This document shows, in pieces, positions 2,886 through 60,813 of a stretch of 64,000 nucleotides of DNA. This DNA comes from Proteromonas lacertae (lineage: Eukaryota). The first letter of the stretch is position 1; every line of letters begins with the position of its first letter. Location: positions 1 to 64,000 of the forward strand of contig NGBS01001185.1 of the NCBI GenBank assembly GCA_002245135.1, given 5' to 3'. The notes under the pieces were generated by a model. That model was not told where the DNA came from, did no database searches, and saw only the letters and a program-made list of their open reading frames with translations. A program made the translations under genes and the position numbers.

Positions 2886-5800
2886 TTATTTAATATTTAA
2901 GAATTCTTTTGACAAATCTTTCTTTTCTTCTTCATTTATTCCATCTAATTCGATTTTTCCTATTGATGAAAATGTTTTTAAAAATGATTTTAATTCTGAT
3001 CTATTTATACTCTCCTGTATTGTAATAGACAATTCATTTAAGCAATCAAAAACTTCTTTGCTCTTTTCCATTTCTGCTAATCCTTTTTTATTTAATATAT
3101 TTCCTGACAAATTTATCGCTTCTAATGGTTGATATTCTTTTAATCTCTTTATTAAGGTTGTTAATCCTTTTTTTGTCATTCCAACATCTATTAAATTATA
3201 TTTACATTTAGAATATACTTGATAAGTTTAATGATATTGGGATATTTTTACTAGTCTTTTCTACAAATATATCTAAAAATTTGCAGATTATATCTATCCC
3301 TTCATCTTTAATTTCATTATTATATATAGAAATATGTTTAACTTCTTTTTGTAAAGAATCGGTTAATTCTTTTAATGCATTATGATCAATTTTATTGTTT
3401 GATAAATCAACTTCCCATGATTTGATTGATTTAAATATCTTAATATGAGAACCATTGAGATTGCAATCTATTTCATTATATACATACATATTTATACTAG
3501 ATAAATCAACAGAATATGTATTCTTTTTATTATAATACTCTAAAAGCCTTCTCCATTCTTCAAATGTCCATGAAGGATTTTTAAATTGAATGAATGTAAT
3601 ACTTTCTAATGATTTATCACAAATTAACTGTAATGTATTAGTGCTAATATTATTTCCATTCAGGTTAATTAAATAACATTCATTAAGTGAATCTAATTTA
3701 TTTGTTAAAGATATTACACTTTCATCATCTATAGAGGTATTACACAAATCCATTTCATCATCATTTATCATTTCTAAATTGTTTTCTAATAACTTAAATC
3801 CAGCATTACCAATTGGATTATCTATAATATAAACATAATATTAATATATACTATGAATCAATAACTTGTCTATTCTATTGTTTTCTTTATATAGTTTATC
3901 AAATATTCTATTCCATTTGAATCTATATTATTTTCGCTTATATCGAGACACTTGATATTTCCATTAACATTATTCAAACCATCCACTAAATATTTCAAAC
4001 CAATTGAAGATAAACCCATCTCTATTACATTTAGATCTAAAAATGATTATACTTGAACAACCTATCCTATTTTCTTCATCTTTTAATAAACTTAAATAAG
4101 GAGATAATAATTTCAATCCTGCATCTCCTATTTCATTTCCGTATAATTTAAGATATTCAAGATTTGAGAACAAAGATATATTGTTTAATAATCTTTCAAT
4201 ACCTAAATTTGTTAGTTTATTATCTAAGTAATTATATGCATTAAATAATACTTCTCAAATCTAATTTTCTTATATCTTTTAACTCTTTACTTCTCAAAGA
4301 AACGAAATCTTTTATATAATCATCATCAATAAGGGAATCATTCAGATATAATTCTTTATTATTTATATATTTAATCAATTCAGGAAGGTCTTTATCTACC
4401 AGCAGTGTCTGTTTTCTTCCATTAAGACTAAATTCTATCTTGGAAATATCAAATTTGGAAAATAAGAATTTTAATCCAGTAGAATTGATATTACTATTGT
4501 ACGAAACAATGATTCTGCTAAAATTTGAATGTTTAGATGCTAATTCTATCATCGACTCATTATCCAAATTCATTCTTTCAAGACTCAGTTCATTATTCTG
4601 GTTAATCAAAATACCTAATGATGGAGATAATAATTTCAATCCTTTTGAACCAATTGGATTATCTATTTTAATAATTATTAATATAAACAAAGAAGAAATA
4701 TACATTGAATATCTACATATTCTAATTTCATAAATGGAATAGAATGGACAAACGATTCAACAAAATAAGAAGTAAGATGACAACATGATAAATCTAACAT
4801 CTTTAAATTTGTTAATTGATTGAAATTTGAACCAAATAATGATTGATTTTTGATTGGAAGATCAATATCAACTAAAGATATGAAAGTAATTAGAATTATA
4901 CAATATTCCATTTTTATTGGATTGATAAATCTTGTGATTTTGAATAAATAATTTATACCTTCGTCACAACAACAAAGACATGCGAGTCAATTGATATTTT
5001 TTCAAAATCACTTCCATTAACTTCCATATTAAATATCATTTCATCTAAATAACATTCTTTTCTACATTTATGATTCACTTGGAATGTCAGTTTATCTTTT
5101 ATTGAATTATCTTTTTTGCATAATTTCATCATTAATAATATTGATAATATTCTTTCATTCGGCTTACTATTGTATGATTCTATTAAATCATCTCGAATTT
5201 CTTCATATTTATTGTTTCGTGTATAATACTTTGATTGAACATCAACAAACCGTGATATTTCTATTATATAATCATTATTGAATAATATCTCTTTTCTTTC
5301 TTTACACATCATTATTTCATTCTCACTATCTTTCATCATTTCACTCATCTTTATCATTTCTTTTCTTAACTCAGTTAAACTCAATCTATCCTCACTCTTC
5401 ACTTTTAACATTCTTTCTATCATTTCTTTCATCTTATCATCACACTCTACATCAATACAGTATTTACATCTCAGAATATTATTTAGGGTTTTATTCATAT
5501 TATTATCTTCATTGAATGGTAATTTCTTACAAATCATTTCATAAAGTATACAGCCAATTGACCAAATCACACTTCTCTCATTACTTCCAACCCATTCAAT
5601 TCTTCAGGACTTTTAAAGCACATATCATATAATCCCATATCTTCATTCTTTCTCAAAACTATTCAAGAGTAAATCACATAACTTTATATTTTTATCATCA
5701 TCTTCATATACTATGTTACTACTCTTTAAATTACCAACAACTATATCATATTCACTCAATATCTTCATGATATGACATAATGAACATATTATGCCACATA

Positions 5801-6171
5801 TATCACCTTCTGATAAGGACTTACTCTTGATCATCTCTTCTAAATCTCTTACGTAATATTTTCGAGATATTACCATATATTCACCATCATTATTTATTTG
5901 AACATCATAAGGACAAAAGAAGGAACTACAACAATCTAACAACAACGATTGATTTCATAGAATTTTAATATCTTCTTTTCTTCTACTTCAGTAACATCTA
6001 TAATTTTCATCATCTTAGATTCACTATAATGCTCTACAACCGAATCTATTTCACGAACATTCCTTGTCTTTTTATATCTAATCTATAAAAATAAATTAAC
6101 TAAAATACTTGAGTATTAACCGGTAATATTGAAGAGAGGTTTGTATTTAAAAATGAAATAAAATTAATCAT
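2886..6171 (-). pseudogene. Pseudokinase-LRR family copy 1 (several frameshifts: pseudogene or consensus errors)
   Basis: Kinase fold (VVGNLKSSN, KLCDL, WSIGCILYEM) followed by RI-type LRRs (LxLxxNxIGDxGLxxL). Phase-1 short introns at the same sites as paralogs. Frame breaks near 5950, 5640, 5580, 4950 and 3960. Confidence 0.8.
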
Positions 6172-6324: not shown

Positions 6325-7257
6325 ATGATAAAAGATGATTTGCTGTTGATGAATAGTATAAAAGAGAAAGCAGTAGAATATTTGAAGATAGAGAATATGT
6401 TAGAAGACAAAGAATTAACAGATCCTTCAAGTGAATATTATAATAAACCTGAAGAATATGGAATGAAAAAATTTGCATTTTATTTATGTGAAGAATGTAA
6501 AAAGCCATATTATGCTGGATTAGCTGCTTGTGGAGATGGAAATGTACAACAACAACAACCTCCACCACAACAACAATTTCCATTTCGAAGACATCCAGGA
6601 AGAAAAAGATATCCTAAAAGACCTGCAATTAGAAATCTTCCACCTCCACCTCCACCACCACCTCCTCCTTCAGGAAGACATCTTCCCCTTCCACCAGAAA
6701 TGAATATACCTCAACCACTTCCACTTCCACCTCCAGTTCAAAATGATTATGATTATGATTATGATTATGATGAGTATGAAGAAGAATCTGATGATGATGA
6801 TGCTGATATTTTTGGTTTTAATCATCATGAACAAAGAATAGATATGAATATGATTATTCCAGATGTAAAAGTAGATGATAATAGAAAACTATGTAGTATG
6901 TTATATTCATGTTTATATTATATATTTTGAATAGATAAGTGTAGATATAAGAATTCAAAAATCAAACCATGTGATATTCATGGATTTGAATATGCAGTTT
7001 TTAAATGTCGATATTGTTGTAATCCAAGTGTTTGGTTTTGTTTTGGAACAACTCATTTTTGTGAAGAATGTCATAATATTCATAATGCAATACAGAATAA
7101 GGTATAGTATTGTTGATTATTATATAATTAGCCATTGAATGAACTTCCAAAATGTTTAGGTAAAGGTAAATGTCCAAGTGGTGGAAATCACCCACAAAAT
7201 GGAGTAGAACACTATTTAGGTTGTAGTGTATGTTTAGCAAATGCTGCAAAGATGTGA
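6325..7257 (+). pseudogene. 5'-truncated duplicate of the MYCBP2-type tandem-cysteine domain exons
   Basis: Same sequence as the 3' part of the gene at 9317-11496 (FYLCEECKKPYYAG...KCRYCC...WFCFGTTHFC...LGCSVC). RING and upstream parts are missing. Confidence 0.8.
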
Positions 7258-7468
7258 TTAAAATTAAAATAAATTATCTAATATTGGTTATATGCTACTT
7301 TTATTCTTTTACTGTAAAAAACATAACAAAAAACTAGTCATGTCATATTTAGAGAATTTAAGAAGACAGCTTAGTAGTGAACTAAGTATAATCGATATTC
7401 TATTGTATAAAACAGAAAAGGGGGATTGTGCAGATAAAGATCTGATATTAGCTCTTCAATATGGTATT
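6325..7468 (+). repeat. Left arm of 1144-bp inverted duplication (partner 9106-10249)
   Basis: Reverse complement of 9106-10249. Identical ORF translations except SSELS vs SSILS. Confidence 0.95.
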
Positions 7469-9234
7469 TCATCAACTGGAGGTTCTCCACATTCAGCCAA
7501 ACCAGCATAATATGGTTTATGACATTCATCACATAAATAAAATGCAAATTTCTTTAAACCATATTCTTCAGGTTTATTATAAAATTCACTTGAAGGATTT
7601 GTCAATTCTTTATCATTCATCATATTTTCTACTTTTATATAACTCAAACAAGCTCTTTTCACTGTATCTAATAGTTTTAATTCAGGATGGATTATCTCAT
7701 TTATTGAAGGATGTTCCATTATTTTTCTACATTGAGGACATTCTAAATAACCAAATGATATTCGAATACCACTCCATTTATTCTTTATCTTTTCTATTAC
7801 ACAATTATAATGGAATATATGACCACATTTTAATATAATACAAGGAGAATCACTCAATCCTTCACTATAACAAATAGTACAATATTCATTTCCATCTATT
7901 TTATTACTATCACTACATTTAGGGTTGAAACAAGGAAGACAAGGTGAATGAAGAAGTCCACAACAATAATGACCACATTTAAGCTTCTTTTGACATCCAA
8001 TAACAAGTTTATTATAACAATCTTCATCACTACAAACATCACAGTTTCTTATTGCATTGAGTTTCTTATGACAATATCTACATTTTTTGATTCTTAAAAA
8101 TACATTATATTCTTCACATGTTTTACCTAAATGGAATGGAATTTTACTACAATTTCTACACCATATTGTTCTATTGTTCATTATATATATATATATATAT
8201 ACTCACATTTACTACATCTTACTCTATATTTATCTCTAGCTTGAATTTGCTTTAATGTTATTACATTTCCTTCATCATCTTTTTCTCCTGTTATTTGTTT
8301 ATGCACTTCACCTACTTCAATCTATTCATTATATATAAAATAATGAAATATACATAAAATATCAATTTACAATTTGGACATTCAGCTAAATCTCCATTTT
8401 CTAATAATGGAGCTAAATTCATTTTCTTTTCATTCTTCTCAAATATATTTTTTAATTGTTTATCTCCATTACATTGCGATTGTATTAATTTAAATGGTTT
8501 ATTGCATTTTGGACATATATATTCACTACTTTCATTATTCTCTAATTCTAATATGAAATGTTTGAAACATTTCTTGCACATTATATGACCACATTGTAAC
8601 TCTACAGACTTAAGCGTTTGAGGTTCTTCAGCACGAATTGAACATAAAACAAACTCTTTATGAATGAATGAAACATTGAATAGGTTTGTTTCACTTTTCT
8701 GTGATTCAAGTTGTGATAATTTCTTTTCAATATAAGATTGATTAGCTTTCAACTCATTATCTGTAATTATTTCGCAATTAACAGCCCATTTGTCAAGCTG
8801 AAAGTAAAATATACAATAACCATCTGGACATTTATAGCCCATAGTTTCTAGGCCAATATTGCGTATATACTCTGATAAACACTCACTACAGAACACATGA
8901 TTACAATTCTATGTCATAATGCTGAAATAAATATACCAATTGTATTGTATTTATCGAATCAGCTATTTTATTACATATTGAACATCTAATATTCTCTCTA
9001 CATAAAAAAGTTGTTTTAATCACAGAATTATTATCTAGTGAGAATGATTCTACTGCATCACCTATCAATATATTTTTCAAATATACTGTTACCATTATTA
9101 TACTCAATACCATATTGAAGAGCTAATATCAGATCTTTATCTGCACAATCCCCCTTTTCTGTTTTATACAATAGAATATCGATTATACTTAGTATACTAC
9201 TAAGCTGTCTTCTTAAATTCTCTAAATATGACAT
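7456..9234 (-). CDS. RING-RING-IBR + MYCBP2-like RING E3 ligase paralog A, C-terminally truncated
   Basis: Spliced model from MSYLENLRR: two C3HC4-like RINGs, IBR (CPNC...CSKC..WCRNCSKIPFHLGKTC), MYCBP2-like CTICYSEGLSDSPCIILKCGHIFH...KWSGIRISFGYLECPQC. Ends just after YAGLAECG at the inverted-repeat junction. Confidence 0.8.
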
Positions 9235-10249
9235 GACTAGTTTTTTGTTATGTTTTTTACAGTAAAAGAATAAAAGTAGCATATAACCAATATTAGATAA
9301 TTTATTTTAATTTTAATCACATCTTTGCAGCATTTGCTAAACATACACTACAACCTAAATAGTGTTCTACTCCATTTTGTGGGTGATTTCCACCACTTGG
9401 ACATTTACCTTTACCTAAACATTTTGGAAGTTCATTCAATGGCTAATTATATAATAATCAACAATACTATACCTTATTCTGTATTGCATTATGAATATTA
9501 TGACATTCTTCACAAAAATGAGTTGTTCCAAAACAAAACCAAACACTTGGATTACAACAATATCGACATTTAAAAACTGCATATTCAAATCCATGAATAT
9601 CACATGGTTTGATTTTTGAATTCTTATATCTACACTTATCTATTCAAAATATATAATATAAACATGAATATAACATACTACATAGTTTTCTATTATCATC
9701 TACTTTTACATCTGGAATAATCATATTCATATCTATTCTTTGTTCATGATGATTAAAACCAAAAATATCAGCATCATCATCATCAGATTCTTCTTCATAC
9801 TCATCATAATCATAATCATAATCATAATCATTTTGAACTGGAGGTGGAAGTGGAAGTGGTTGAGGTATATTCATTTCTGGTGGAAGGGGAAGATGTCTTC
9901 CTGAAGGAGGAGGTGGTGGTGGAGGTGGAGGTGGAAGATTTCTAATTGCAGGTCTTTTAGGATATCTTTTTCTTCCTGGATGTCTTCGAAATGGAAATTG
10001 TTGTTGTGGTGGAGGTTGTTGTTGTTGTACATTTCCATCTCCACAAGCAGCTAATCCAGCATAATATGGCTTTTTACATTCTTCACATAAATAAAATGCA
10101 AATTTTTTCATTCCATATTCTTCAGGTTTATTATAATATTCACTTGAAGGATCTGTTAATTCTTTGTCTTCTAACATATTCTCTATCTTCAAATATTCTA
10201 CTGCTTTCTCTTTTATACTATTCATCAACAGCAAATCATCTTTTATCAT
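9106..10249 (-). repeat. Right arm (probable source) of 1144-bp inverted duplication
   Basis: Covers the 3' end of paralog B, the intergenic region and the 5' end of paralog A. Confidence 0.95.
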
Positions 10250-11496
10250 ATCAGAAATACGCTCATGATTCATTATCTATTTCAATATACAAACATAATA
10301 TATATACTTTGTCACATAAAGGACAGTTCAAATATTTAAAGGAGATTCGATTGCCTGTCCAACGACTTTTTATTCGTTCGATTATACAATCATAATGAAA
10401 TATATGACCACATGCTAACTCTATACAAGGACTTTGACATAAACTTTCACTCCAACAAATATTACAAAAATCTTCACTAATACTTTCGATTGATGAGTCA
10501 ATATGATCTACACAGCCTTCCATCAAACAAGGAAGACATTTACTTTTATTTATTCCAAAACAACGATGACCACATTTCAATATCTTTTTACAGCATAAAT
10601 CATCTTTCTCTTTACATTCACTTCTTTCACAGATATCAATTTCACTTTCTTGATCTTCTAATATATTCTTACAATATCGACATTTTCTCATCTTTAAATA
10701 TTTATCATATTCTTCACATGTTTTACCTAAATGATATGGAATCACTTTACATTTTATACACCAATTCGTTCTATTATAAATAAAACATAAACAAATATTA
10801 TACTCACATCTTATACATCTAACTCTATATCGATCTCGATGTTGAATTGATTCTAAATTCATCACATTTCCTTCATTATCTGTCTCACCAGTTATTTCAT
10901 TATGAATTTCACCTTCTTCTAAGATAAAACAACATTTACATGTCTCATTAGGACAATAATACAATGTTTCATCAGGAAGTATTTGCTTTAGTTTGAATAA
11001 TTCATTCTCACTTAATTCTTCTTCTTTTAATACTCTATTTGAAACTAGCCATCTATCTAACTCAAATATTACATCACAATCTTTACAAGCACATTTATAA
11101 TCACTATGATTTAAACCAATCTCTTTTATATATTTAGATAAACATGATTTACAAAAACGATGTGAACAGTTCTATTAAACATACATTTCATAATAAAATA
11201 AATCATACAGGTAACTCCACTGCTTCACTTTCTTCTGGAATTGATTTACATATATTACATATAACAAGTCTTTTAACAAAATCTTCATCATTTTGATCAT
11301 CGGCTATATCTATCACTTCTTTACGTTCTTCAGAGCTTCTTTCATCCATATCACTTTCATCTGAATCATCAATAATTATGTAAGGAGGAGTTGTGTCTTT
11401 GATTGGCTTTTCTTCTTTATCTATTTCATCTATAGATAGCTGCAGAATACGTTGCTCATATTCATCTGTATCTATAACATTATCTACGCTATTCAT
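9317..11496 (-). CDS. RING1-IBR fused to MYCBP2/PHR-type RING-Cys-relay E3 ligase, paralog B (complete)
   Basis: Spliced: CNIC...CSHRFCKSC...CKDC RING, IBR (CPNETC..CIRC..WCIKCKVIPYHLGKTC), RING (CNICWSESLCQSPCIELACGHIFH), then the TC domain YAGLAAC...FKCRYCCNPSVWFCFGTTHFCEECH...HPQNG..LGCSVC, recognisably the MYCBP2 C-terminus. Confidence 0.88.
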
Positions 11497-11714: not shown

Positions 11715-14700
11715 ATGTCTTCTCCTAAAAGAAAGAGTATATAAGAATATTTAATATCACAATAGGAGAAGAAGATAATTCAGTTATAGATGCAACAGAT
11801 AAACAAATTCAAAGTGTAAGAATTTTCCCAAATCTAGAGGTTGCTGAAATTATCTTTCTTCATTCAAATGTACTCACAGTTATCAATCCATTAATAGTTT
11901 GTACACATTTAAGAAAGCTAGATCTTGCTTTTAACTCTATAGTCACTATTCCCCCATATACATTTTGGGAACAGTTATCAGCTCTTCAAATACTTTATTT
12001 ACATCACAATAAGATAAATGATTGGTCCAATTTAGAGTCTTTAAAGCCATGTACGAAGCTGCTATATTTAACCATGTATGATAATCCTATTTGTAAATAT
12101 GATACATTGAGACATTTTGTAGTGAATGCAATACCGTCATTAATTGCTTATGACAATTATATAATCTCAGATGAAGAGTGTGTTGAAGGTATGACTTATT
12201 CACCTCCATTTAATGCATTTAACGACAAATTTCTGTTACCACCACCTCAATATCGTGCCAATGTTGGTGCAAAAGCTCACAAATATGCATTGAAGAATGA
12301 AATTAGATTATTGCTGTACAAACGTTCTAGATTATCTCCAATACTAATATTGCAACGATATTGGCGTGGATATAAAGTAAGAGCTGGATTTAGAAAGATT
12401 AATAGAATTCGTAAGTTAGGAGCAGTAAAATTCCAATCACTGTGGAGAGGATATTATAAAAGAAAATGTTTGAAGCAGCAGCTGAAGGAATATCTTGATA
12501 GAACAGGTCAATCAGAGTTATTGCTAAATGAGTCAGAAAGAATGATAGTAAAAGCGGTAAAATACTTGCAGAATAAATACCGTAGTATATTAAGAGCTAG
12601 AGCGATGACAAAGTTGTTATTTATCACACAAAAGCTATTTATGAAATATAGAAGGATTTGTAAAACTTGGAGCAATTTTTTCGAATCTTTAGGAGCACCC
12701 ATTTTATATTTTCCTCAAAAATCGTATGATATGTTATTGGATTTAATCAGTAAAGTAATACCAAAAACAATAACAGATTATAATTGTAAATCAAAAGTGA
12801 AATTATCAAAATATTTAATAAGAAATGATTGGGATGTTAATTATGAAGATGATGAGATTCAAAATACAAATACAAAGGGACAAGTGTATTTCTGTATTCC
12901 TGACAGTATATTGGAGAGAATGAAAACATGTGGCAATAAAAGTAAGAAAATGTTTGCTAATTTCTATGGTAGAAAATATCCAGCTATTTATAGTATGAAA
13001 AATAACGAAATTAATAAGAATATTGATATATTTAAACCACTGGTATATATATATTATATATAAATACACTTTTTTTGTATTTTTTTGTATTTCATGTATT
13101 TATATGTATAAATAGATGCAATATGCTTCAAACAATGTTAAACATATTATTTATAATAATTTAATCTCCCCAAGATGTTCACACAAATATAACACCAAAG
13201 CTAAATCAAATCCAAAATCCAAATCAGAAAAATCAGAGTTATTTATACCATTATATCAAATAGAATTACCTAATAATGAAATATTATCAAAACTAATGAG
13301 AATATTGTATCGTTACCCAGAATTCCCTCGATCAGGTATTTTACACCAATGGCAATTACAACAGATATATAATGTTACAAAAATCCAATCAGTGTTTAGA
13401 TCCTATGAAAGACGATATGTTGTAGCAGGAACAATTATTGAAAAAATGATTGAAACACGAGCAGTGGTGTTAATACAAAGATGGTATAGAATCTGTGGTT
13501 TAAGGAAAAAACTTACATTGCATATTATATTAAAACAATATTTAGAAATCCTTCGAGAAAATGCAAGTAAAAAATTATACATCAACAGGAAACAGTATCG
13601 ATATTTAACTGAAGCAAATTTCACCAATCAAATTGAGATGGATTCTCAAGCTAATAATATGTTAGTTACATTTAATGAGAATAATCGTGCAATTATTATA
13701 CATTATCGTAGTAATCCATATGTCCCAATAATTCCACTGTGGATGAATGCAGTAAATTATGGTCCTGGGAAAATACCTGTTTATCAAGGGAAAGAAATAT
13801 TCCAACCATTGTTATTTCGAGGATGTAAAACTCAATTGAGAAATAGAAATAATTTTGAACCACTTTCTAATATTTTAAATCATAATCATCATAATAATAA
13901 TGAAGAAGAAGAAGAAGAAGCAATGGAATTTGTAGAAATTGAATTTCCATCTATTACTGAAGCCATTGCAAGGTGTATGATAATATGTTCATTAACATGG
14001 ACTCATAAATATAAAGATTTTGCTCCACTTTATCCTATTGAAGTATTGAAAGATATGAAAATTATTAAAAGTGTTTATCTACAGAGATTATATACTTGTC
14101 CATCAGCATGGTTGAATAGAATATGTTATGGTATTTATCCTGTTAAAGAAAATAATAATAATCGTAAAAGTAAAGTGATTGTAGATATTCCAACTACTTC
14201 GATCACTACAACAAAATCTAAATCAGTACCATCATCACCTATTAAACAACAACAACAACAAATAACATCTGTTAAAAGTAATACAACCAATACAAATACA
14301 AATACAATTAATACAAATACACCTAATACAGATGTTAATACAATCAATACATCTTCACTGTTAATCCCTTCATCTCCTCGTCCTGTAATAAACCGTCCAA
14401 CAACACCATCACCTTCTTATAAATCTTATAGAAAATATAAAAATAAACAAAACATAAAAACTCCTCCAATTTCATTAAATGTTGAAGGAATAGATATGAT
14501 CAGATCTTCTCAAAAACAAACTCATTCTCAACACAAACCAAAGGAGAGATACTTGATAGAAAAAGATGAAATAGTAAATACAGTAAGAATGGAACATATG
14601 GAAGTCAATAATCGAATTATATATAATAATAATAAACAAATGCAAGAGAAATTAAAACTAAAAAGATCAGTTGTTGATAAAAACATTAAAAGAGAAAGAT

Positions 14701-15356
14701 TGAAGAATTTTAGAAGATTTTTAGATGGTGCTTATGCTGAACCTTCCTATCCCAATGAAACAGTAGAAAGACAGAATTATAACAATGATTTAATGACTGT
14801 AGCAAAGACTCAATATATACGAGAAGAATTGAATAACAATAAAGCAATCTTATTGGATGAAAAAGAGGAGTATTTAAATGCATTGAAAGATCATTTAAAT
14901 GATGAAAGAAATAAAATTAATAAATTAAGAAAGGAAGCAGATGAGAATGAAGAAGATATGATGAATAGAATTCAAATGCAAAAGAATAAAAACAGGATTA
15001 AGCAAGTGAGAGAGAAGAATAATAGATTAATAGCTTTAGAAATAAATAGAAGGCAAAGACAATATGTAAGGACAGTTACTCAGAACAATATAAGAACTTT
15101 GAAAGAAAATAGGTTAATTGAGATACAACAACAAACTGCTGAGAGAAAAGCCATAGAGGAAGAAGAAAAGAACATGGTGCACGATGCTCTGTATGAGAAA
15201 TATGAATCGTTGAGAGAAAGAGTGAGAACTCAAAAGAGTATGATTGATAAAGAGATAGCTGAAAGTAAAGCTATAGATCCACATATATCTGTATCTATAA
15301 AGAGGAAACAACCACCTTATACCCATCGAATAATTAAAGATCCCAATTCAGAGTGA
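11715..15356 (+). CDS. LRRIQ3: Leucine-rich repeat and IQ-motif protein (LRRIQ3-like) with coiled-coil C-terminus
   Basis: Spliced N-terminus LRKLDLAFN...FWEQLSALQILYLHHN...LTMYDNP...RHFVVN...YIISDEE resembles LRRIQ3. IQ motifs LQRYWRGYKVR, FQSLWRGYYKR, IQSVFRSY. Introns at about 11737-11765 and 13043-13115. Confidence 0.75.
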
Positions 15357-29214: not shown

Positions 29215-29508
29215 AAGGAATTGTGTTAAACATTCTTGAATAGTGACTAAAGTAAACAAATTTATATCCATTCTATGCAGCATAATTAGCTCTACACACT
29301 CTCCTAATCTAAACAATAGAAGATTAATAATACAGTTTTTATTGAAGTAAAATAATTCATTTAATTATTTGAAACGGATAAGATTTAGAAACATCAAACT
29401 TAAGCTTGAAAATGTTTTTGAGAAATTCTTCGGAAGATGATGTGTTATCCTCATTATTACCTTCTGATATAAAAGTATATTAGTAAATATTATTTTATAG
29501 ATAAAAGA
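29215..29508 (+). repeat. Direct duplicate of 25665-25958 (GrpE 5' fragment + kinase-LRR exon 1 and intron 1)
   Basis: Near-identical sequence at a constant offset of 3550 bp. Confidence 0.92.
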
Positions 29509-32243
29509 AAGAAACGAAAAGAGCGTAAATGAAGTTGATCTTGTTGTAGAACATGAAAGTGATGTGAAGATGATAAAAATCTTGAATGCATGTTGTATAG
29601 ATGATAATAAAATATTAAAGTTCTGTGAAAATAACAGCTTGTTGTCAGATTATTGCTCCTTTTTATGTTATCCATTAGATGTTCAAATGCTCGGATATAA
29701 TATGATTGTGTTAGAAAGAATGTACTATATGAGAGATTTAGAAGAGATTATTAAGAGTGAGAGAATATCCAATGCTGAAATCTGTAGTGTGATATGTGGA
29801 TTATGTAATCTTATGATGATATTAAATGAAAATGGTATAGTAGTTGATAATTTGAAGAGTAGTAATGTAATATATGAAAATTATGATGAAATAAAGTTAT
29901 GTGATTTATACTTGAATATGTTGAGAAAAAAAGATGAATTGAGAGTGTATGATATCTGCTTCAAAAGTCCAGAAGAGTTGAGTGGATTAGAATATAATGA
30001 TCGAAGTGTGATTTGGTCAATTGGATGTATATTATATGAAATGATTTGTAAGAAATTAGCATTTAATGAAGATAATAATATGGATAAAACCAAAGATAAT
30101 ATTGTGAGAGGTGAATTTAGTGTTGATGTAGAATGTGATGAATTGATGAAAGAGATGATACACAGAATGTTAATAGTGAAAAATGAAGATAGATTGAGTT
30201 TAACTGAGTTAAGAAAAGAAATGATAAAGATGAATAAAAAATTAAAAGATGAAGAAGATAATGTGATGATATGTGAAGAAAGAAAGGAAATAGTGTGCAA
30301 TAATGATTATGTGATAGTAATGTGCCCAATTGTAACTTTTAAATCAAAATATTATGTGGAGCTGAACAAAAGAGAAAGTATATATAATGTGTTAGTAATA
30401 TTATTGAATAGAAATTCAAGAATATTTGATAAGATTATACAATAGAAAAGCAGATGAAAGAATCATGTCAATATTGTTGATGATGAAAGTATGTAAAGGA
30501 GATAATTCAATAAAAGATAAAGTGAAATTTCAGATTGGTCATAAATGTAAAGATAATAGAGGTTGTTATTTAGATGAAAAGATATTTAATATTTATAAAG
30601 TCAGATGTGATAAAGAAATAATCAAAATTGACATAGGATGTGTATGTATTTGTGAAGAAGGAATGGATTATTTCTTCAGAATATTGAAATTGATTAATCC
30701 AACAAAATTGAGATTTGGTATAATTGATATTGTTATTATTTCTTTAGGTGATTATGGATTTAATATTCCAAGCCAATATCAACATTATTTGTATCATTAT
30801 TATCTGAAATACCAAATGTACAAGAATTATATTTAATATCCTGCAATTTAAGTAGTTATTTCATTGAATCCTTGATAAGTGCAATTCCATATATGAAAGT
30901 GAAATATATAGATCTTCGCTGTATTTATATTTCTTATATTATATTGAAATAGGTAATGCGATAGGTGAAAACGGTTTGAAAATATTGCTTCCATATTTAC
31001 ATTTATTAATTAACAATAGAAATGAATTATATCTAACTGGAATGAATTTGAATGATGAATCAATGATGTTATTATCATCAGAATTATATAAATATCCAAA
31101 TGTCAAGAAAATCGATATTAGATGTAATAATGTTTATTCGAAAGGATTAAAATCCTTGTTTTCTCAATTTCCTATATCCAAAATAGACTTTGATTTTAAT
31201 GAAAGTAAAGAATTACTGATAGACAAAGACATTCCCGAATTAGTAGAATACATCAAAGATCATAATTACTTAAATTTGAGTAATTCAGAAATAGATGATA
31301 ATATTTTAAAATCATTCATCTCTTTAAGATTGAATGAGTTGAGAGGAATAGAAAAGTTAGATTTGAGTAGTATAATAGTATAATATTATTGTTTTATTTA
31401 GATAATAAATTGACAGATAAAAGTATGGAAGTACTGATTAACAATCTGTGTTCATTCTGGTGTATTTATCACATTCAATTGAATGGAAACTTGATAGGAG
31501 ATAAAGGAATGAAAATATTATCTTCCCATTTATATATACTCAAAGATGATGATAATTCACTTGATTTTTCAAGTATAATAATAATCGTTTATAATATAAT
31601 AGACATGGGATTATCTTCAATTGGGTTAAAATATGTATTAGATGGTTTAAAGAATACTGATGAAGATATAAAACTGAATGTAAGTGAAAATAATATTGAT
31701 TCAATTGGAGTAGAATATCTGATGAAATATCTAAAAGAAAATGATAATATTGAAAGATTATCCATTCACAGTATATATTTTGTTTTAATTATGTGTTTAA
31801 TAGATAATCCAATTGGTAATGTTGGATTTAGATTGTTATTGAAGAATTTTGATTTGTTAATAAATGATGATAATGAGATAAACTTGAGTAAAATATCAAT
31901 AGATGATGAAAGTGCTTTATTATTAACAAAAGAAATACATCATAGTGGGAGATGTAAAACAATAAATCTAAAAGGAAATAATATCAGAATGAAAGGGATA
32001 AAATCAATATGTTCAAAATCATTAGAAAATAAATATTATCCCTTAATAGAAATGAAATGTTCATTATGGACAAATGAAGAAATGAAATACTATTTGAATT
32101 ATTGTAGAAAGAATAAAGTAAAATATTCTTGGATACTTTTACTAAGCTTACATGAACAAATAATGTTATTCTTGTCAGAACTAATGCTAATGTTATTACC
32201 AGTAGTAGCACTTTATCAAAGACTTATGAAAGAAGATATTTAA
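29412..32243 (+). CDS. Pseudokinase-LRR family copy 3 (last LRR exons replaced by an unrelated tail; 1-nt frameshift near 30783)
   Basis: VVDNLKSSN kinase fold plus LRR exons. Near-identical to the inverted copy at 45709-48460. Confidence 0.82.
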
Positions 32244-32454
32244 TTATTAATATTATATTTTTTAAACATAATTTTTATATATCATCATTAGCTTGAATAA
32301 TAGACAAGCCTAATTCAAAATTGAAAATAGAATATTTATCATTATAATCAGACGCTATGTTAATTACCATCTTTATAACTCCTTTATTTGAAATTGAAAA
32401 TGAATAGCTTGAATAGAGTAATCAAGCTAGTACATGTTTTAAAGTTTAATAATT

Positions 32455-34553: not shown

Positions 34554-34929
34554 TTGATTGTATTGTTATTATAATTAATTTTCTATTGATGTATTTGTCT
34601 ATTTAATAGTAAAATAATGAAAAACAAAGAAATCAAAACGAATATATTTTTGATATTTAATCAAACTATCAAATCAAGCTTAATAATGTTTTAAATTTAT
34701 GTTAGTATTGCGTAATGCAGAAGTAGTTTAGAAGTGTATTACAGCTTATTTGAGATAATAAATTCAAAGAAAGATTATTATATAATAGAATTATAGATAT
34801 AAATAGAATGTTACTCAGAGAATATTATATGAAGGTTATTTAGTAATGAATTCTGTTAATTATGAAAATGCATAGATAGTCAAAATCATACTAAATGAAT
34901 GTATTTTACGAAATACAGAACAACTCTCC

Positions 34930-35637
34930 TCTCCATTTGAACATTTAAGTGTATGGACAGAAGTGTTACAAGATACAATGTTAGATTTATTCGATTGTGG
35001 AAAATTAGACTGTGCTTCAGCAGTATCTTTATCCTTATCTCCAAAAGGATTCGAAAGATTCTATGCGAATTTACCAAAATATGAAAAGAAAATAATCTTA
35101 AGACCTCAAGCAATAGCTAACCATGCTGAATGTGTTCGAAGACTAGGAGTAATAGCAATGAATACTCCATTAGAAGTAGATATCTATGCTCATGCAAACA
35201 GTAGTTTAATAGGTGGAACTCGAATGGTAAATGGTTTAGGAGGTTCAGGTGATTTCTTACGTAATTCTTATCTATCAATAATGCATACTCCGTCAGTACG
35301 AAAATCTAAGAATGATCCTCATGGTATCAGTTGTATAGTTCCAATGTGTTCTCATATTGACCATACAGAGCATGATTTAGATGTAATCGTCACTGAACAA
35401 GGTGTAGCTGATTGTCGAGGTTTAGGTCCACGACAGAGAGCAAAAGAAATCATCAGCCATTGTGCTCATCCTGAGTATAAAGAACAATTGTTAGAATATT
35501 ACAATATGGCTGAGAAAGATTGTTGTAGTAAAGGAATTGGTCATGAGCCAGTATTATTTGATTTGGTTCATAAAATGCATTTGAATTTGAGTAAGAATGG
35601 AACAATGAAATTGAAAAGTTGGAGTGATAAAGTTTAA
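34930..35637 (+). pseudogene. 5'-truncated duplicate of acetate:succinate CoA-transferase
   Basis: Reverse complement of 48667-49374. About 290 N-terminal codons are missing. Confidence 0.9.
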
Positions 35638-45585: not shown

Positions 45586-45708
45586 TGTAATATATCTGCA
45601 TATATGTATAGGATATAATATAATTTAAAATATTTAAATACATTTTATATGATTATAATATAATCATGATTGTTTTTATTTATATTATAAAAAATATAAT
45701 ATTAATAA

Positions 45709-48532
45709 TTAAATATCTTCTTTCATAAGTCTTTGATAAAGTGCTACTACTGGTAATAACATTATCATTAGTTCTGACAAGAATAACATTATTTGTTCAT
45801 GTAAGCTTAGTAAAAGTATCCAAGAATATTTTACTTTATTCTTTCTACAATAATTCAAATAGTATTTCATTTCTTCATTTGTCCATAATGAACATTTCAT
45901 TTCTATTAAGGGATAATATTTATTTTTTAATGATTTTGAACAGATTGATTTTATCCCTTTCATTCTTATGTTATTCTCTTTTAGATTTATTGTTTTACAT
46001 CTCCCACTATGATGTATTTCTTTTGTTAATAATAAAGCACTTTCATCATCTATTGATATTTTACTCAAGTTTATCTCATTATCATCATTTATTAACAAAT
46101 CAAAATTCTTCAATAACAATCTAAATCCAACATTACCAATTGGATTATCTATTAAACACATAATTAAAACAAAATATATATACTGTGAATGGATAATCTT
46201 TCAATATTATCATTTTCTTCTAGATATTTCATCAGATATTCTACTCCAATTGAATCAATATTATTTTCACTTACATTCAGTTTTATATCTTCATCAGTAT
46301 TCTTTAAACCATCTAATACATATTTTAGCCCAATTGAAGATAATCCCATGTCTATTATATTACAAACGATTATTATTATACTTGAAAAATCAAGTGAATT
46401 ATCATCATCTTTGAGTATATATAAATGGGAAGATAATATTTTCATTCCTTCATCTCCTATCAAGTTTCCATTCAATTGAATGTGATAAATACACCAGAAT
46501 GAACACAGATTGTTAATCAGTACTTCCATACTTTTATCTGTCAATTTATTATCTAAATAAAACAATAATATTATACTATTATACTACTCAAATCTAACTT
46601 TTCTATTCCTCTCAACTCATTCAATCTTAAAGAGATGAATGATTTTAAAATATTATCATCTATTTCTGAATTACTCAAATTTAAGTAATTATGATCTTTG
46701 ATGTATTCTACTAATTCGGGAATGTCTTTGTCTATCAGTAATTCTTTACTTTCATTAAAATCAAAGTCTATTTTGGAATAGGAAATTGGGAAAACAAGGA
46801 TTTTAATCCTTTCGAATAAACATTATTACATCTAATATCGATTTTCTTAACATTTGGATATTTATATAATTCTGATGATAATAACATCATTGATTCATCA
46901 TTCAAATTCATTCCAGTTAGATATAATTCATTTCTATTGTTAATTAATAAATGTAAATATGGAAGCAATATTTTCAAACCGTTTTCACCTATCGCATTAC
47001 CTATTTCAATATAATATAAGAAATATAAATACAGCGAAGATCTATATATTTCACTTTCATATATGGAATTGCACTTATCAAGGATTCAATGAAATAACTA
47101 CTTAAATTGCAGGATATTAAATATAATTCTTGTAGATTTGGTATTTCAGATAATAATGATACAAATAATGGTTGATATTGGCTTGGAATATTAAATCCAT
47201 AATCACCTAAAGAAATAATAACAATATCAATTATACCAAATCTCAATTTTGTTGGATTAATCAATTTCAATATTCTGAAGAAATAATCCATTCCTTCTTC
47301 ACAAATACATACACATCCTATGTCAATTTTGATTATTTCTTTATCACATCTGACTTTATAAATATTAAATATCTTTTCATCTAAATAACAACCTCTATTA
47401 TCTTTACATTTATGACCAATCTGAAATTTCACTTTATCTTTTATTGAATTATCTCCTTTACATACTTTCATCATCAACAATATTGACATGATTCTTTCAT
47501 CTGCTTTTCTATTGTATAATCTTATCAAATATTCTTGAATTTCTATTCAATAATATTACTAACACATTATATATACTTTCTCTTTTGTTCAGCTCCACAT
47601 AATATTTTGATTTAAAAGTTACAATTGGGCACATTACTATCACATAATCATTATTGCACACTATTTCCTTTCTTTCTTCACATATCATCACATTATCTTC
47701 TTCATCTTTTAATTTTTTATTCATCTTTATCATTTCTTTTCTTAACTCAAGTTAAACTCAATCTATCTTCATTTTTCACTATTAACATTCTGAATATCAT
47801 CTCTTTCATCAATTCATCACATTCTACATCAATACTAAATTCACCTCTCACAATATTATCTTTGGTTTTATCCATATTATTATCTTCATTAAATGCTAAT
47901 TTCTTACAAATCATTTCATACAATATACAACCAATTGACCAAATCATACTTCGATCATTATATTCTAATCCACTCAACTCTTCTGGGACTTTTGAAGCAG
48001 ATATCATACACTCTCAATTCATCTTTTTTTCTCAACATATTCAAGAATAAATCACATAACTTTATTTCATCATAATTATCATATATTACATTACTACTCT
48101 TCAAATTATCAACTACTATACCATTTTCATTTAATATCATCATAAGATTACATAATCCACATATCACACTACAGATTTCAGCATTGGATATTCTCTCACT
48201 CTTAATAATCTCTTCTAAATCTCTCATATAGTACATTCTTTCTAACACAATCATATTATATCCGAGCATTTGAACATCTAATGGATAACATAAAAAGGAG
48301 CAATAATCTGACAACAAGCTGTTATTTTCACTAAATTTTTGGATTTTAGTATCATCTATACAACATGCATTCAAGATTTTTATCATTCTATTATCACTTT
48401 CATGTTCTACAACAAGATCAACTTCATTTACGCTCTTTTCGTTTCTTTCTTTTATCTATCAAAATTACAATCAAATAATACTTTCATATCACATAATAAT
48501 AGTGATTTTAATATTTTATCTATCAATTTCAT
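45709..48532 (-). CDS. Pseudokinase-LRR family copy 5 (near-identical to copy 3 in body, exon 1 as in copy 4; frameshifts)
   Basis: Translations match copy 3. Single-base shifts near 47985, 47750 and 46770. Confidence 0.8.
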
Positions 48533-48666: not shown

Positions 48667-50241
48667 TTAAACTTTATCACTCCAACTTTTCAATTTCATT
48701 GTTCCATTCTTACTCAAATTCAAATGCATTTTATGAACCAAATCAAATAATACTGGCTCATGACCAATTCCTTTACTACAACAATCTTTCTCAGCCATAT
48801 TGTAATATTCTAACAATTGTTCTTTATACTCAGGATGAGCACAATGGCTGATGATTTCTTTTGCTCTCTGTCGTGGACCTAAACCTCGACAATCAGCTAC
48901 ACCTTGTTCAGTGACGATTACATCTAAATCATGCTCTGTATGGTCAATATGAGAACACATTGGAACTATACAACTGATACCATGAGGATCATTCTTAGAT
49001 TTTCGTACTGACGGAGTATGCATTATTGATAGATAAGAATTACGTAAGAAATCACCTGAACCTCCTAAACCATTTACCATTCGAGTTCCACCTATTAAAC
49101 TACTGTTTGCATGAGCATAGATATCTACTTCTAATGGAGTATTCATTGCTATTACTCCTAGTCTTCGAACACATTCAGCATGGTTAGCTATTGCTTGAGG
49201 TCTTAAGATTATTTTCTTTTCATATTTTGGTAAATTCGCATAGAATCTTTCGAATCCTTTTGGAGATAAGGATAAAGATACTGCTGAAGCACAGTCTAAT
49301 TTTCCACAATCGAATAAATCTAACATTGTATCTTGTAACACTTCTGTCCATACACTTAAATGTTCAAATGGAGATGATGCCAAACCAGCAGTTACAGCAT
49401 TAGCAATGTTTCCTACACCTGATTGTAATGGTAATAAATTCTTAGGTAATCTTCCAGCTTTTACTTCTGTATTGAAGAAATCAATAATATGACCAGCAAT
49501 TGTCTTTGAATCATTATCAATTGCACTAAATCCTCTACCGTTATCAGGCATATTGGATTCTACAATTGCTACAATCTTATCACTTTCTATGTATTGATAA
49601 GCTGATCCAATTCTGTCATCTACTCTGGAGATTAAGAATGGTTTACGGTGTGGTGGACGGACAGTACAGTCTACATCATGCATACCTTCTAATACTGGTA
49701 ATTTAGTGTTTACTTCAATGATAATCTTATCAGCAACTTTGCACATTTCAGGTGTTGCTCCAACTCCAGTACCTAAGACTAAACCACCGTCTTTGTTGAT
49801 TTTTGTACATTCGATTATTGCAAAATCTAATTTACCAGGATTTGTCTGGTTTCTGGTGGTATAGAATCCATATTCTAAATTTTGACCAAACATGGATAAG
49901 TGAGTATCACCAAAATCGATTTGTCCTTTATTTATACTTTTGGCAATAGCTTTACCTGTTTGATATGGCCATCTTCTTTTAATCATTCCTAATTCGGCCC
50001 AACGGTTTTCTGTTTCAGCTCCCATTGAAGCACCACAGAATAAGTCAAATTGCATTTTTTCACCAGTCTTTTGTACATGATCAGCTAAAGTAACTGGAAT
50101 TATCTTAGGATAACCAGCTGGTGTAAAACCAGACCAACCAATACTCATTCCACTTTTAAGAAACTTGATAGCTTCTTCTGGTTTCATGATCTTCTTAACG
50201 TAAGAAGGTTTCAATACTCTTTGTAACATAGCAGACGACAT
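48667..50241 (-). CDS. ACH1: Acetyl-CoA hydrolase / acetate:succinate CoA-transferase (ACH1-like)
   Basis: 524-aa uninterrupted ORF with [59 protein letters not shown]. Possible 5'UTR intron at about 50248-50289. Confidence 0.95.
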   Translation of the reverse strand: MSSAMLQRVLKPSYVKKIMKPEEAIKFLKSGMSIGWSGFTPAGYPKIIPVTLADHVQKTGEKMQFDLFCGASMGAETENRWAELGMIKRRWPYQTGKAIAKSINKGQIDFGDTHLSMFGQNLEYGFYTTRNQTNPGKLDFAIIECTKINKDGGLVLGTGVGATPEMCKVADKIIIEVNTKLPVLEGMHDVDCTVRPPHRKPFLISRVDDRIGSAYQYIESDKIVAIVESNMPDNGRGFSAIDNDSKTIAGHIIDFFNTEVKAGRLPKNLLPLQSGVGNIANAVTAGLASSPFEHLSVWTEVLQDTMLDLFDCGKLDCASAVSLSLSPKGFERFYANLPKYEKKIILRPQAIANHAECVRRLGVIAMNTPLEVDIYAHANSSLIGGTRMVNGLGGSGDFLRNSYLSIMHTPSVRKSKNDPHGISCIVPMCSHIDHTEHDLDVIVTEQGVADCRGLGPRQRAKEIISHCAHPEYKEQLLEYYNMAEKDCCSKGIGHEPVLFDLVHKMHLNLSKNGTMKLKSWSDKV

Positions 50242-51199
50242 ACTAATCTATTAGTTTAAAAATGTTATAATTATATTTATATTTCATACTTAAGAAAAAA
50301 ATGCAAAATGAGGTTTTGAATGAAAGATATGCTTGAGTAATTCAAGTTTTAGAATATTCTAAATTCCATTTTTGAAAATATGATAGAGAAACCACCTATA
50401 ATTCATGAATTTAAGAAAGAAAGAAGGTTTAGACTGTCAGTTCTATCTGGACCTCTAAAAGTTTTTTCTTATGGAGTTTGTGTTTGTATTTTTTTGATCT
50501 AGTTATTTAACAATAGTTTTGGGAGTGTATTGTGTGTTGTTTGCACCATTTGATGAAAAAATGATAGGAAATAATGCTTTTACTCCAGTATTTATTTGGT
50601 TTAATAAATATATTATATATATAGATAAGAAAGTATTATTATAGAACTAGAAATAATTTATTTGATGTTCCTGATGTTATAACTAAGAAAGACATAGATA
50701 GTTTATAAGTTTTTATTTATAACCTGAATAATTTAAGTTTTGTTATGTTTTTGAATTTAACTTAAGTTATATTTGTTATAACAACAATAAATCTTCACAA
50801 AAGTAGAGAATTTGATGATTTTTATATTACATTGTCAAGTTAATATGGTTTTAAAAGAAGATACTTAGAGAATCATAATTGCGAAAAATTGAAACATTTC
50901 GATTGTTATTAACAATGTTAGACATTTTTTTGAATGTTGGTTTATGAAAATATTTTTCATACCCCACAATTATAAAATGTTCAATTGTTGCAAGAAACAT
51001 GTTAATTCGTATTTTTATTACTCCATAAAATGACTTACTAGGAGAATAGCTGGGAACTATGATAATTCGAATTTTATTTCAAAGATGTGCTTTAATTACG
51101 TAAAGCCTTTGTAAGTAGTTGGAAGTAAAAGACCTCTTGAATTTTATGATCTACCATTATTACCGTATAATACAGTATGATAAAAATCTAGCAAAAATA

Positions 51200-57532: not shown

Positions 57533-60500
57533 ATGACAGTAAGTCTTTGAGTTTATGATTTAAATAGAGTGAAATAATGAATAGTGATTATAAAGTAGTT
57601 CTGGAACATATTTTAAAAGAAGTGAACAGCAGTGAGGCTCTAATCGAAAAATGCCAACAAGTCGTAGAAAAAGTCGTTTTATATCGATCAACACTATCGC
57701 TAGGTAAGGAAGAAAATCGAGTATATATTTAATCTACTAATATAAATAGGTACCAGTGATAGAAAATAGATTAATTGCAGTATATACAGTATTTATAAGT
57801 CAATTAATGCTAAATGATGAGAAGATTCAAACATCGTATATTAAATATCCTGCATTAATAAAACCAACAGGAATAAGGTATATATATATTTTATAATCTT
57901 ATTTTCTTCTTAGTTTTACTCAATTTTTAGAAGTTTTAACAACATTAGTGGAAAGATTAAACCTAAATAAAGGAATCATAACAAATTTAAACCATTATTT
58001 AAACACATTACAGTCAATCGAATCATTTTATGTGAGATTCGAGCAGATCTGGAAATATTTAATGGATAATATCTCATTAAGTGAAGAACCACCTATTAAT
58101 ACCAATGATTTAAAAATGAACAGTAAAATAATGATTTGGAGTATATTTCTATTACAATGGAATATTGAAAGTGGAAATTCATTGGAAGAAATATTCTGTA
58201 TTTTATTATCAACAATAGAGTTTGTATATGAAAACTCAATCTTGTGGAAAAGTATAATTATATATAATTTATAATATATATAGAAGGTGAAGCATATAAA
58301 AGAAATGATTTCTTCAAAATAGTAGGAATTGAATCAAAAGATTTACCAAATATAACAATATACAACAACAAATGTAATAATACCTCAAGCTTCATTCAAG
58401 CCTTAATGAAAGAAAATGTATTAATAGGAAATGGTAGTGAAAAAGATATGAAATCATTGTCGAATATGTTTGTAACAAATTTAAATGAGAATACAGAAAG
58501 AATTATTAATTATTATAATGAAAACCATTTAAAGAGTATCTACGATATAGATGGGTTAATGCTTTTGAAGAAAGATAATAATAATTATATTAACATATAT
58601 ACGCCTATTCCTAATCCATTAACATCATCATCATCAATCAATAATAACAGTAGAAATAACAGCTTACATAAAGAAAGTCCATATAGAAGTTTAAATTTTG
58701 ATTTTTCTAATTCTTCTACTCAATTAATTACACCGATTTCTCCATCTTTTTCATTTGGTCATACACCAACACCATCTGATTTTAAATCAATGTCTTTACC
58801 TCAACAACAACAACAACAATCAAATAATGGTAATAAATATAACCAATTACAGCAATTACAACAACAAGGAAGTGGAATAAATGAAAGAGTTGAATTCCCC
58901 AATATAATAGAAACACCTATTCTAGGATCTATTTCGCTAAGTAAATTATTAAATATTTTAGATGAAATTCCACTATCAGGAAGTAAAGAATTCAATGATT
59001 ATTTAAATGACGCTGGTGAAAGTGAGAATATAAATGCTCATCGACGAATTGAAACAATCATTAGTTTAATCAATAATGAAATAATAAAATGTTTTAAAAG
59101 TCAGAATATTTTGATAGAAAAATCACGAAAAGCTTATGAATATGGTTTGAGACTGTATTATCACTCCTGTAGCAAGATATTTCGAATGGAAAGAGATAGA
59201 GTGAGAGATGTTAACAAGTTTCTAAGTTTAGTAAAAAATGATAATTTTCATCGTAGTTTAATAACAATATGGTATATATATAATTATTATATATAAATAG
59301 TATGGAAGTAATATTTCATCATTATAATCTACAAGAATTAATGTTTCCACGTATTTTAGAATACTTATCAATCGATGCATCTGATTTTATCAAGTTAATG
59401 GATACATTTAATAACAGTGAGCCATCTTTGCCAAGAACAACTATTCAGCATATAGTAGAAATAGAAGAAAAATGTTTACAGATAGAAATATGGAAAGAAA
59501 ATACTACAGTATATAAGAATATAAAGACAGTTTTATGTTATAAAAGAAATCCAGTATAATCTATATATATATATATATATTATTATTATTATTATATTAT
59601 TAAAATAGCTATCATGTGATCCACTACCTTCACATATAATTACATCAATTGATTTATTAATTCGAAAAATCATCACTTATGCTCATCGAAGACTGAATTC
59701 AATATACCAATACTTAAAAATCAAAAGAAATATATTTGCTGAAATCTGGAGTACTTTCTATCACATATTTCAAAATAAAATTGAATTATTTCGTAACCGT
59801 CATATGGATACTATTTTAATTTGTTGTATTTTTGCTGTAGGAAAGAAATTAGACAGAGATAATACTTCTATGGATAATATATGTAATATATACAGAAAAA
59901 TTCATAAAAGAGAAGGAACCAAGCTTTTGGCTTGTATAGAATTAGATAATGAGAATAACAATGGTGATATAATCAAATTTTACAACTCAATTTTCTTAAA
60001 TAAAGAAGTTAAAGAGTATGTCTTAAGATTGAATAATCCAAAATATCAAATGAATGAAAGAACAACAAGTGAAATATCAAATGAGATTTTAAGTCCTCCG
60101 ACTAATAATTACAAGTATATATATTTATATATATTAATTATTTTAAATAGTTCTCCAACTAGACCAGTAATAACAAAACCACCTGATCAACTGTCCAGTG
60201 GTATTTCACAAAATAATAACAATATAAGAAACAATCAAACAGGTTTGCCAATTCATTATACTGGTAATATAAAATATTTGTCCAGTCAATGTCCTACTTA
60301 TTATTTTGATAAATGTAATAATAATAAAGATATTGAATTAATCAATAGGGCTGTTAAACATTCATGTAAATTGTTAGAGTATTATTATTATTTATATAAT
60401 TTAAATAGAAAAAATGTAAAGATTCAATCAAGTGATATTGAACAATCAATTCCTATACCAGAAATCCTTGAAAATACTAGCAATATAATCAAAAGTAATC

Positions 60501-60813
60501 CATCTGCAATATCATCAAGAACAACAACAACAACAACAACTAATTCTATTCCATCTCCACCACCACTTTATACTAATACAACAACAACAACAACATCAAT
60601 AAAGAAAGGAAAAGAGAATAATAATGAAGAAGATGAAGATTATGATGATGATAGTAATAGTAGTAGTGATACAGAAGCTGTTTGTAGTGACAGTGATCGA
60701 GATACAACGATTATTAATGATGATAATGAAGAAGAAAATGATGAAGAGGAAGAAATGAAGAAAATGAACAAGAGGATAAAGAACATGTTAATAAAAAGAG
60801 AAAAACAAAATAA
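57533..60813 (+). CDS. RB1: Retinoblastoma-family pocket protein
   Basis: RB_A motifs FHRSL..MEVI..FPRILE..DFIK..EPSLPR..HIVEIEEK..W and RB_B motifs NRHMDTILICCIFAVGK, GDIIKFYNSIF. The likely true end is ..VNKKRKTK* at 60813 after a 1-nt shift. Confidence 0.88.

Follow-up and report, generated by a model that had tools for sequence, protein, structure and literature searches.

The RING-Cys-relay (RCR) mechanism of ubiquitin transfer is known from MYCBP2, a protein of 510 kDa (PMC9120709). In the mechanism given by reviews, the RING binds E2~Ub, ubiquitin passes first to a cysteine in the mediator loop, and from this flexible-loop cysteine it is relayed over about 24 Å to a second cysteine, with a histidine base and a three-phenylalanine pocket accounting for the preference for threonine (PMC6769291, PMC9527308, PMC9120709). 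A glutamate is assigned to the catalytic triad in one of these reviews (PMC9527308), and the relay has been proposed to need transient ordering of the mediator loop (PMC9120709). In RBR ligases, RING1 binds the E2, and the RING1-IBR helix together with the IBR binds an activating allosteric ubiquitin (PMC9834252). MYCBP2 was called the sole member of the RCR class in a 2022 review (PMC9120709), a 2019 review asks whether it is the lone example of a non-lysine E3 (PMC6769291), and no other RCR ligase is named in passages of a 2026 review (PMC13008643). Both modules, as well as automatic RCR and MYCBP2 labels on sequence entries, are already known; full-text literature searches, whose coverage lay largely outside subscription journals, found no publication that deals with an RCR ligase carrying an IBR or coming from a protist.

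Here we describe gene A, a real gene and a member of a widespread, uncharacterised family that joins an RBR-type RING1-IBR to an RCR module. It lies in the window, the whole 64,000-nucleotide stretch of Proteromonas lacertae DNA analysed (contig NGBS01001185.1), which is AT-rich (22-31% GC). The start ATG at 11496 and the TGA stop ending at 9317 agree with the interval given in a preliminary description of this DNA, which had also correctly placed the protein below 700 residues (Table 1). The predicted splicing, read from the DNA and from homology, removes five GT-AG introns of 37, 33, 31, 39 and 30 nt. Intron 2 is in frame and stop-free, and we infer it from a matching intron in the neighbouring paralog B, a gap in the family alignment and a dip in pLDDT. 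A Pfam scan of the N-terminal leader returned one weak unrelated match only (E 0.075) and no UIM-type match, so no ubiquitin-binding motif is claimed for it. Between gene A and paralog B, dN/dS, by a method that is crude for AT-rich DNA, is 0.27-0.46 in the IBR, RING and helical part and 1.16 in the zinc linker. Intact ligands and the 0.27-0.46 range in three of the four segments argue, at the level of sequence, for a maintained gene.

Table 1. Coordinates of gene A, its domains and catalytic residues, and the neighbouring copies (positions in the window)
Feature	Position	Strand	Remarks
Gene A, 669 aa	9317..11496	(-)	six exons joined into one open frame
Gene A exons	11496-11209, 11171-10804, 10770-10308, 10276-9679, 9639-9473, 9442-9317	(-)	
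Acidic N-terminal leader, aa 1-79	11260..11496	(-)	no curated domain
RBR-type RING1, C80-C128	11076..11259	(-)	C3HC4 type; zinc loop II of four residues; interrupted by intron 1
RING1-IBR helices, aa 129-165	10965..11075	(-)	L157 aligns with I358 in the allosteric ubiquitin site of HOIL-1
IBR, C169-C237	10716..10955	(-)	long family-typical loop; spans intron 2
Zinc-binding linker, C249-C305	10512..10682	(-)	also precedes the RING in PHR-type proteins
MYCBP2-type RING-H2, C321-C371	10314..10466	(-)	predicted E2 dock; rmsd 1.2 over 56 residues to 6t7f
C451, upstream relay cysteine	10043..10045	(-)	C4520 equivalent, by alignment to MYCBP2
Expanded mediator loop, aa 452-568	9692..10042	(-)	Gln/Pro, basic, poly-Pro, Tyr-Asp and acidic tracts
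Tandem-cysteine domain, second part, C572-C662	9341..9682	(-)	spans introns 4 and 5
C608, downstream relay cysteine	9533..9535	(-)	C4572 equivalent, by family profile
H619, predicted general base	9500..9502	(-)	H4583 equivalent; role as described in PMC6769291
Paralog B	7469..9105	(-)	RING1-RING1-IBR-linker-RING and first relay cysteine; broken off at 7468
Inverted copy of 9106-10249 (gene A 3' half)	6325..7468	(+)	1142/1144 bases identical

The C-terminal half of the protein reads as a complete MYCBP2-type RCR module. The best PDB match of the RING-H2, searched within the exon 2-3 open reading frame (P0001), is MYCBP2 (E 1.8e-13), and the alignment of exon 4 to the helical part of MYCBP2 (E 2.3e-10) reaches the first relay cysteine, C451 of gene A in the motif YAGLAAC. 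Exon 5 searched alone against the PDB gave no match; its motif WFCFGTTHFC, carrying C608, was placed through a 43-sequence family profile that aligns with positions 4-261 of the solved RCR chain, which is 263 residues long (E 4e-109). In this alignment C451, C608, F609, F614 and H619 are equivalent to C4520, C4572, F4573, F4578 and H4583 of MYCBP2. All 17 tandem-cysteine zinc ligands scored are kept, as are F609 and F614 of the pocket, whose third phenylalanine (F4586) is replaced by H622. On the predicted E2 face of the C-terminal RING, I323 is aliphatic in 143/143 relatives and W356 is kept in 119/143.

The N-terminal half has the zinc ligands of an RBR-type RING1 (8/8) and IBR (8/8). The fusion of RING1-IBR to an RCR module with both relay cysteines, as first proposed from the letters of the DNA, holds. 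With HMMs built from 30 homologs, gene A being excluded as a row, RING1 scores 31.0 bits and IBR 69.2 bits, against maxima of 0.6 and 6.1 bits in 300 shuffles. The Pfam IBR model has no match to the open reading frame of gene A itself and matches 18 of the 43 aligned family members. After MYCBP2, the best PDB matches of the family profile are HOIL-1, ARIH2, HOIP and RNF216 (E 5.8e-10 to 2.5e-6).

Predicted structures point the same way. An AlphaFold model of P0001, spanning RING1-IBR-linker-RING with the first two RING1 cysteines absent and intron 2 retained, has a pLDDT of 88.8 and a pTM of 0.74. Residues 1-162 of this model superpose on HOIL-1 299-422 (Z 5.8, rmsd 4.7, 120 residues aligned), its RING1-IBR aligns to HOIP and to parkin (Z 5.3 each), and its IBR fold aligns to that of RNF216 (Z 4.2, rmsd 2.3, 55 residues); these VIA Z-scores are middling, 5.8 at best and none of 8 or above. 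Foldseek with the same model gave no match at E<=0.001, the best rows being MYCBP2 (1.5e-3) and ARIH1 (4.8e-3). With a model of the homolog P0006, built from five sequences and poor in its last 100 residues (pLDDT 61.9), Foldseek gave 20 matches at E<=0.001, of which two are MYCBP2 chains and the other 18, 1wim included, belong to RBR proteins. Taken with the HMM scores, these alignments uphold the reading of the N-terminal cysteine clusters as RING1 and IBR.

The sequence following the IBR is the zinc linker and then the MYCBP2-type RING. A RING2 motif pattern has no match in gene A, and only 3 of 176 IBR-bearing rows match it. Because RING2 is absent, gene A is not an RBR, and because the IBR runs into the linker and the RCR RING, it has one catalytic engine rather than two. 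The suggestion that two transthiolation architectures are combined here is therefore not sustained: the RCR engine alone is present.

The E2-contact position of RING1 is I82 in gene A, which corresponds to HOIL-1 V284, whose mutation abolishes discharge according to PMC9834252. Among relatives the position is aliphatic in 75/130, with K, R, A, S or Q frequent in the others. Zinc loop II, whose four-residue length is an RBR trait (PMC9834252), has this length in gene A and in 71/137 relatives. RING1 is the least conserved zinc domain of the family, with a mean non-ligand conservation of 0.27 against 0.56 for the C-terminal RING, the RING1 figure coming from 24 columns in a locally poor alignment without a true-RBR control. 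The column of L157, assigned to HOIL-1 I358 by counting along the family-profile alignment, is hydrophobic in 82% of 141 rows, which could be structural. The second half of the IBR is strongly conserved (R212 in 139/143, P230 in 138/143 and H232 in 143/143). In our model the predicted RING1 is assigned no catalytic role.

Gene A shares with MYCBP2 and the other PHR proteins (Highwire, RPM-1; PDB 5O6C, 6T7F) the RING-H2, the zinc linker before it, the helical part and the tandem-cysteine domain. Both relay cysteines and the histidine base are likewise shared, and so are two pocket phenylalanines out of three. In contrast to MYCBP2, which is about 4600 residues long, its 669 residues lack the RCC1-like, PHR and F-box-binding regions; no RCC1-like or PHR domain was found in the exon open reading frames scanned. 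At the site where gene A has RING1-IBR, PHR-type proteins have a B-box-like finger. The RBR proteins HOIL-1, HOIP, parkin, ARIH1/2 and RNF216 agree with gene A in the order and fold of RING1, the connecting helices and the IBR, whereas gene A has neither RING2 nor the RBR catalytic cysteine, and its IBR carries a long inserted loop. Judged from its residues and domain order, gene A would work like an RCR ligase and is neither a PHR ortholog nor an RBR.

Gene A is further set apart by its mediator loop. The interval between C451 and C572, the zinc ligand that follows, spans 121 residues of low complexity, with an insertion of ∼104 residues that the preliminary description leaves out, whereas the same interval is 17 residues in MYCBP2, 12-22 in 132/139 relatives and 24-87 in the other seven; the loop is the longest among 140 sequences measured. 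The insert is rich in Pro (27/120), Asp, Gln and Arg, and its base pattern is coding-like (GC 0.67, 0.38 and 0.05 by codon position). We considered and rejected an intron within it: there are four in-frame GT-YAG pairs, none of which would leave fewer than 84 residues.

Further departures affect single residues. The position of MYCBP2 E4534, three residues before C572, is Arg in gene A (R569) and acidic in 118/139 relatives, and the last RING cysteine is followed by Asp372, with Asp there in 0/143 relatives. These two residues weigh, as far as alignment can tell, against full activity, and together with the 121-residue loop they make the activity of gene A uncertain. The F4586 position, His in gene A, is Phe in 0/143 relatives, and the F4573 position is Trp in 110/143; given these pocket differences, threonine selectivity may differ from that of MYCBP2.

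Gene A is one of many such proteins. Homologs were picked by similarity to the RING1-IBR-RCR family, one search contributing the best 150 of its 884 hits at E<=1e-30, with some near-duplicates; leaving out P0001, exact duplicates and 12 cluster members, 186 distinct sequences were scored. Among the matches listed, 143 of the 186 carry RING1-IBR-linker-RING-TC (two with a doubled RING1), bearing out the suggestion that relatives may exist in other protists; 28 have no detected RING1 (several are fragments), three no detected linker and 12 no IBR. Of the 132 full-architecture relatives covering the C terminus, 128 retain both relay cysteines and the histidine, and the family median length is 669 residues. 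Several relatives carry the fusion in one complete transcriptome ORF, so the fusion exists on single mRNAs in these organisms.

Of 30 homologs looked up, 19 carry an organism name, and 15 of these 19 have the full architecture: Plasmodiophora, Spongospora, Bonamia, Elphidium, Nonionella, Tetrahymena, Platysulcus, Acytostelium, Planoprotostelium, Rhizomastix, Luapelamoeba, Naegleria, Acrasis, Namystynia and Anaeramoeba. These represent six protist groups, the Rhizaria, Alveolata, Stramenopiles, Amoebozoa, Discoba and Metamonada. The remaining four lack the IBR: P0188 from Cantina, 3951 aa long and equipped with RCC1 and PHR domains, a krill protein, a fragment of a sea-spider MYCBP2, and another protein from Platysulcus, which therefore has both types. 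No IBR-type member from animals, fungi or plants was found among the 19 named homologs, a small sample. The Tetrahymena, Anaeramoeba and Naegleria entries share the RING1-IBR-linker-RING-TC order with gene A; they differ in their short mediator loops and are at most about 45% identical to it over the core. Automatic names pass over the RING1-IBR half: the Tetrahymena thermophila entry XP_001021457, whose architecture was scored on the cluster representative P0035, is called “E3 ubiquitin-protein ligase MYCBP2, putative,” and the Anaeramoeba and Naegleria members are auto-labelled “RCR-type E3 ubiquitin transferase.”

In a FastTree phylogeny of the RCR region, effectively unrooted, sampled mostly from IBR-type proteins and giving no direction of evolution, five non-IBR proteins form one clade (0.989), and the placement of gene A beyond paralog B is unsupported (0.75). 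An Atlas search returned unnamed ciliate-rich clusters (0.92 and 0.88) and IBR/RING clusters below 0.9, which we treat as a lead only. Six relatives (P0008, P0010, P0024, P0135, P0151 and P0129) carry C2, PX, PH, ubiquitin-like or SUN/discoidin domains in addition, a hint that some versions are directed to membranes. Other RCR architectures (P0051, P0192) include a krill protein with repeated CGH-type zinc fingers in place of the IBR, and three linker-RING repeats followed by one tandem-cysteine domain. No ubiquitin or E2 sequence was found among the homologs gathered or in the 51 window ORFs scanned.

Paralog B is 57% identical to gene A in amino acid sequence over 278 codons. It has two tandem RING1 domains before the IBR, shares introns 1 and 2 with gene A at the same positions and lacks intron 3. 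It stops just past the first relay cysteine, where the inverted copy of the gene A 3' half begins. Short shared words at both junctions of this copy point to template switching, either in vivo or while the library was being prepared, and since other recent inverted duplications are present in the window, the copy may be real or an assembly chimera.

The genes around this locus (LRR-IQ, kinases, TPR, acetyl-CoA transferase, ABC transporter and Rb-like) show no functional link to gene A. The divergent LRR and IQ neighbour at 11729-15356 starts about 230 nt from the start of gene A. Kinase genes, some followed by LRR-like exons, are expanded at 25951-48491 and 4910-5849 as direct and inverted copies 76-98% identical (for example, 29465-32271 and 45680-48491). 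Positions 34876-35634 and 48670-50247 hold an acetyl-CoA hydrolase/transferase gene, an enzyme of a kind that anaerobic protists typically have, and a partial second copy of it in a duplicated block. A retinoblastoma-like gene with RB_A and RB_B domains occupies 58268-60880.

Our data give somewhat better than even odds to a model in which gene A encodes a single-chain RING1-IBR-RCR ligase. The C-terminal RING would likely bind E2~Ub, ubiquitin is predicted to pass from C451 to C608, and C608 would attach it to threonine or serine with H619 as the base. The RING1-IBR likely acts as a non-catalytic, ubiquitin-sensing regulator, and the compact N terminus probably stands in for the substrate-recruiting body of the giant PHR proteins. 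We infer that the E2 enters at the C-terminal RING and that RING1-IBR is regulatory because of the conservation of the E2 face, the L157 column and the IBR. Domain order, catalytic-residue alignment, family conservation and predicted fold are observed; the relay and ester chemistry would carry over from MYCBP2, with high probability for the family and a fair one for gene A, and by the same analogy these enzymes likely tag threonine or serine, not lysine. For the ubiquitin-sensing role, borrowed from RBR enzymes, we consider the chances evenly divided.

The retention of I82 at the HOIL-1 V284 position, the RBR-like length of zinc loop II and the RING1 ligands kept in most relatives would also fit an enzyme using two E2s, in which RING1 also binds E2~Ub in the open form, as in RBRs, and either loads C451 itself, the long mediator loop perhaps reaching out to a distant E2, or cooperates with a second E2 in extending the ester-primed ubiquitin into a chain. 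We regard this as improbable: the I82 column is aliphatic in little more than half of relatives as opposed to every one at the corresponding position of the C-terminal RING, where a strongly conserved E2 face already exists, and RING1, besides being the most variable zinc domain, is doubled in two relatives and in paralog B. The preliminary description had raised the possibility of two E2-binding RINGs; the C-terminal one fits well, and support for the other is weak. About equally unlikely, in our estimate, is that gene A is a crippled or rewired copy in which the loop breaks the coupling of the relay, so that gene A would be a slow enzyme, a scaffold or an enzyme that uses its loop to recruit partners or its own substrate. 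The record length of the loop, the Arg at the C-3 acid position, the unique Asp372, the recent rearrangement of the locus and the proposed dependence of the MYCBP2 relay on transient loop ordering (PMC9120709) all speak for it. However, every scored zinc ligand, both cysteines and H619 are kept in an intact frame, the seven relatives with longer loops also keep the upstream cysteine, and the insertion lies downstream of C451, such that the residues preceding this cysteine are untouched. In addition, a 111-nt GT-AG pair at 9800-9690, if spliced, would restore an acid at C-3.

The near-identical 1144-nt inverted copy, which starts within exon 4 and truncates paralog B, could also mean that the fusion is an artefact, made of two neighbouring genes or of an assembly chimera linked to the duplication. 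This is very improbable. The fusion lies upstream of the duplicated segment, with RING1-IBR and the RCR RING in one open frame, and so was not made by the inversion; paralog B has the same junctions, and the order recurs in the 143 homologs counted above, several as complete transcriptome ORFs. The single ORFs of these relatives likewise speak against the possibility that cDNA would reveal two separate genes.

The significance of the single-chain ligase is tempered by the fact that both modules are known, that members already carry RCR labels in databases and that function is predicted only. The family nevertheless offers small full-length enzymes, including the Tetrahymena gene, for a mechanism that in MYCBP2 is usually studied on a fragment. 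It raises the question of what a RING1-IBR does without RING2, and with its 121-residue loop gene A lends itself naturally to testing the “entropic spring” model. We tentatively advance, as a possibility we think less probable than not, that ester-forming ligases of the RING1-IBR-RCR type make up an ancient, pan-eukaryotic class, which probably dates back to LECA and was possibly the original home of the relay. In such a class the RBR front would switch the relay on by sensing ubiquitin or bring in a second E2, with a single chain priming Thr/Ser and also amplifying its own signal, and in gene A the relay would run through a 120-residue disordered tether. A compact single-chain family in six protist groups would make cysteine-relay, ester-linked ubiquitination general and old in eukaryotes.
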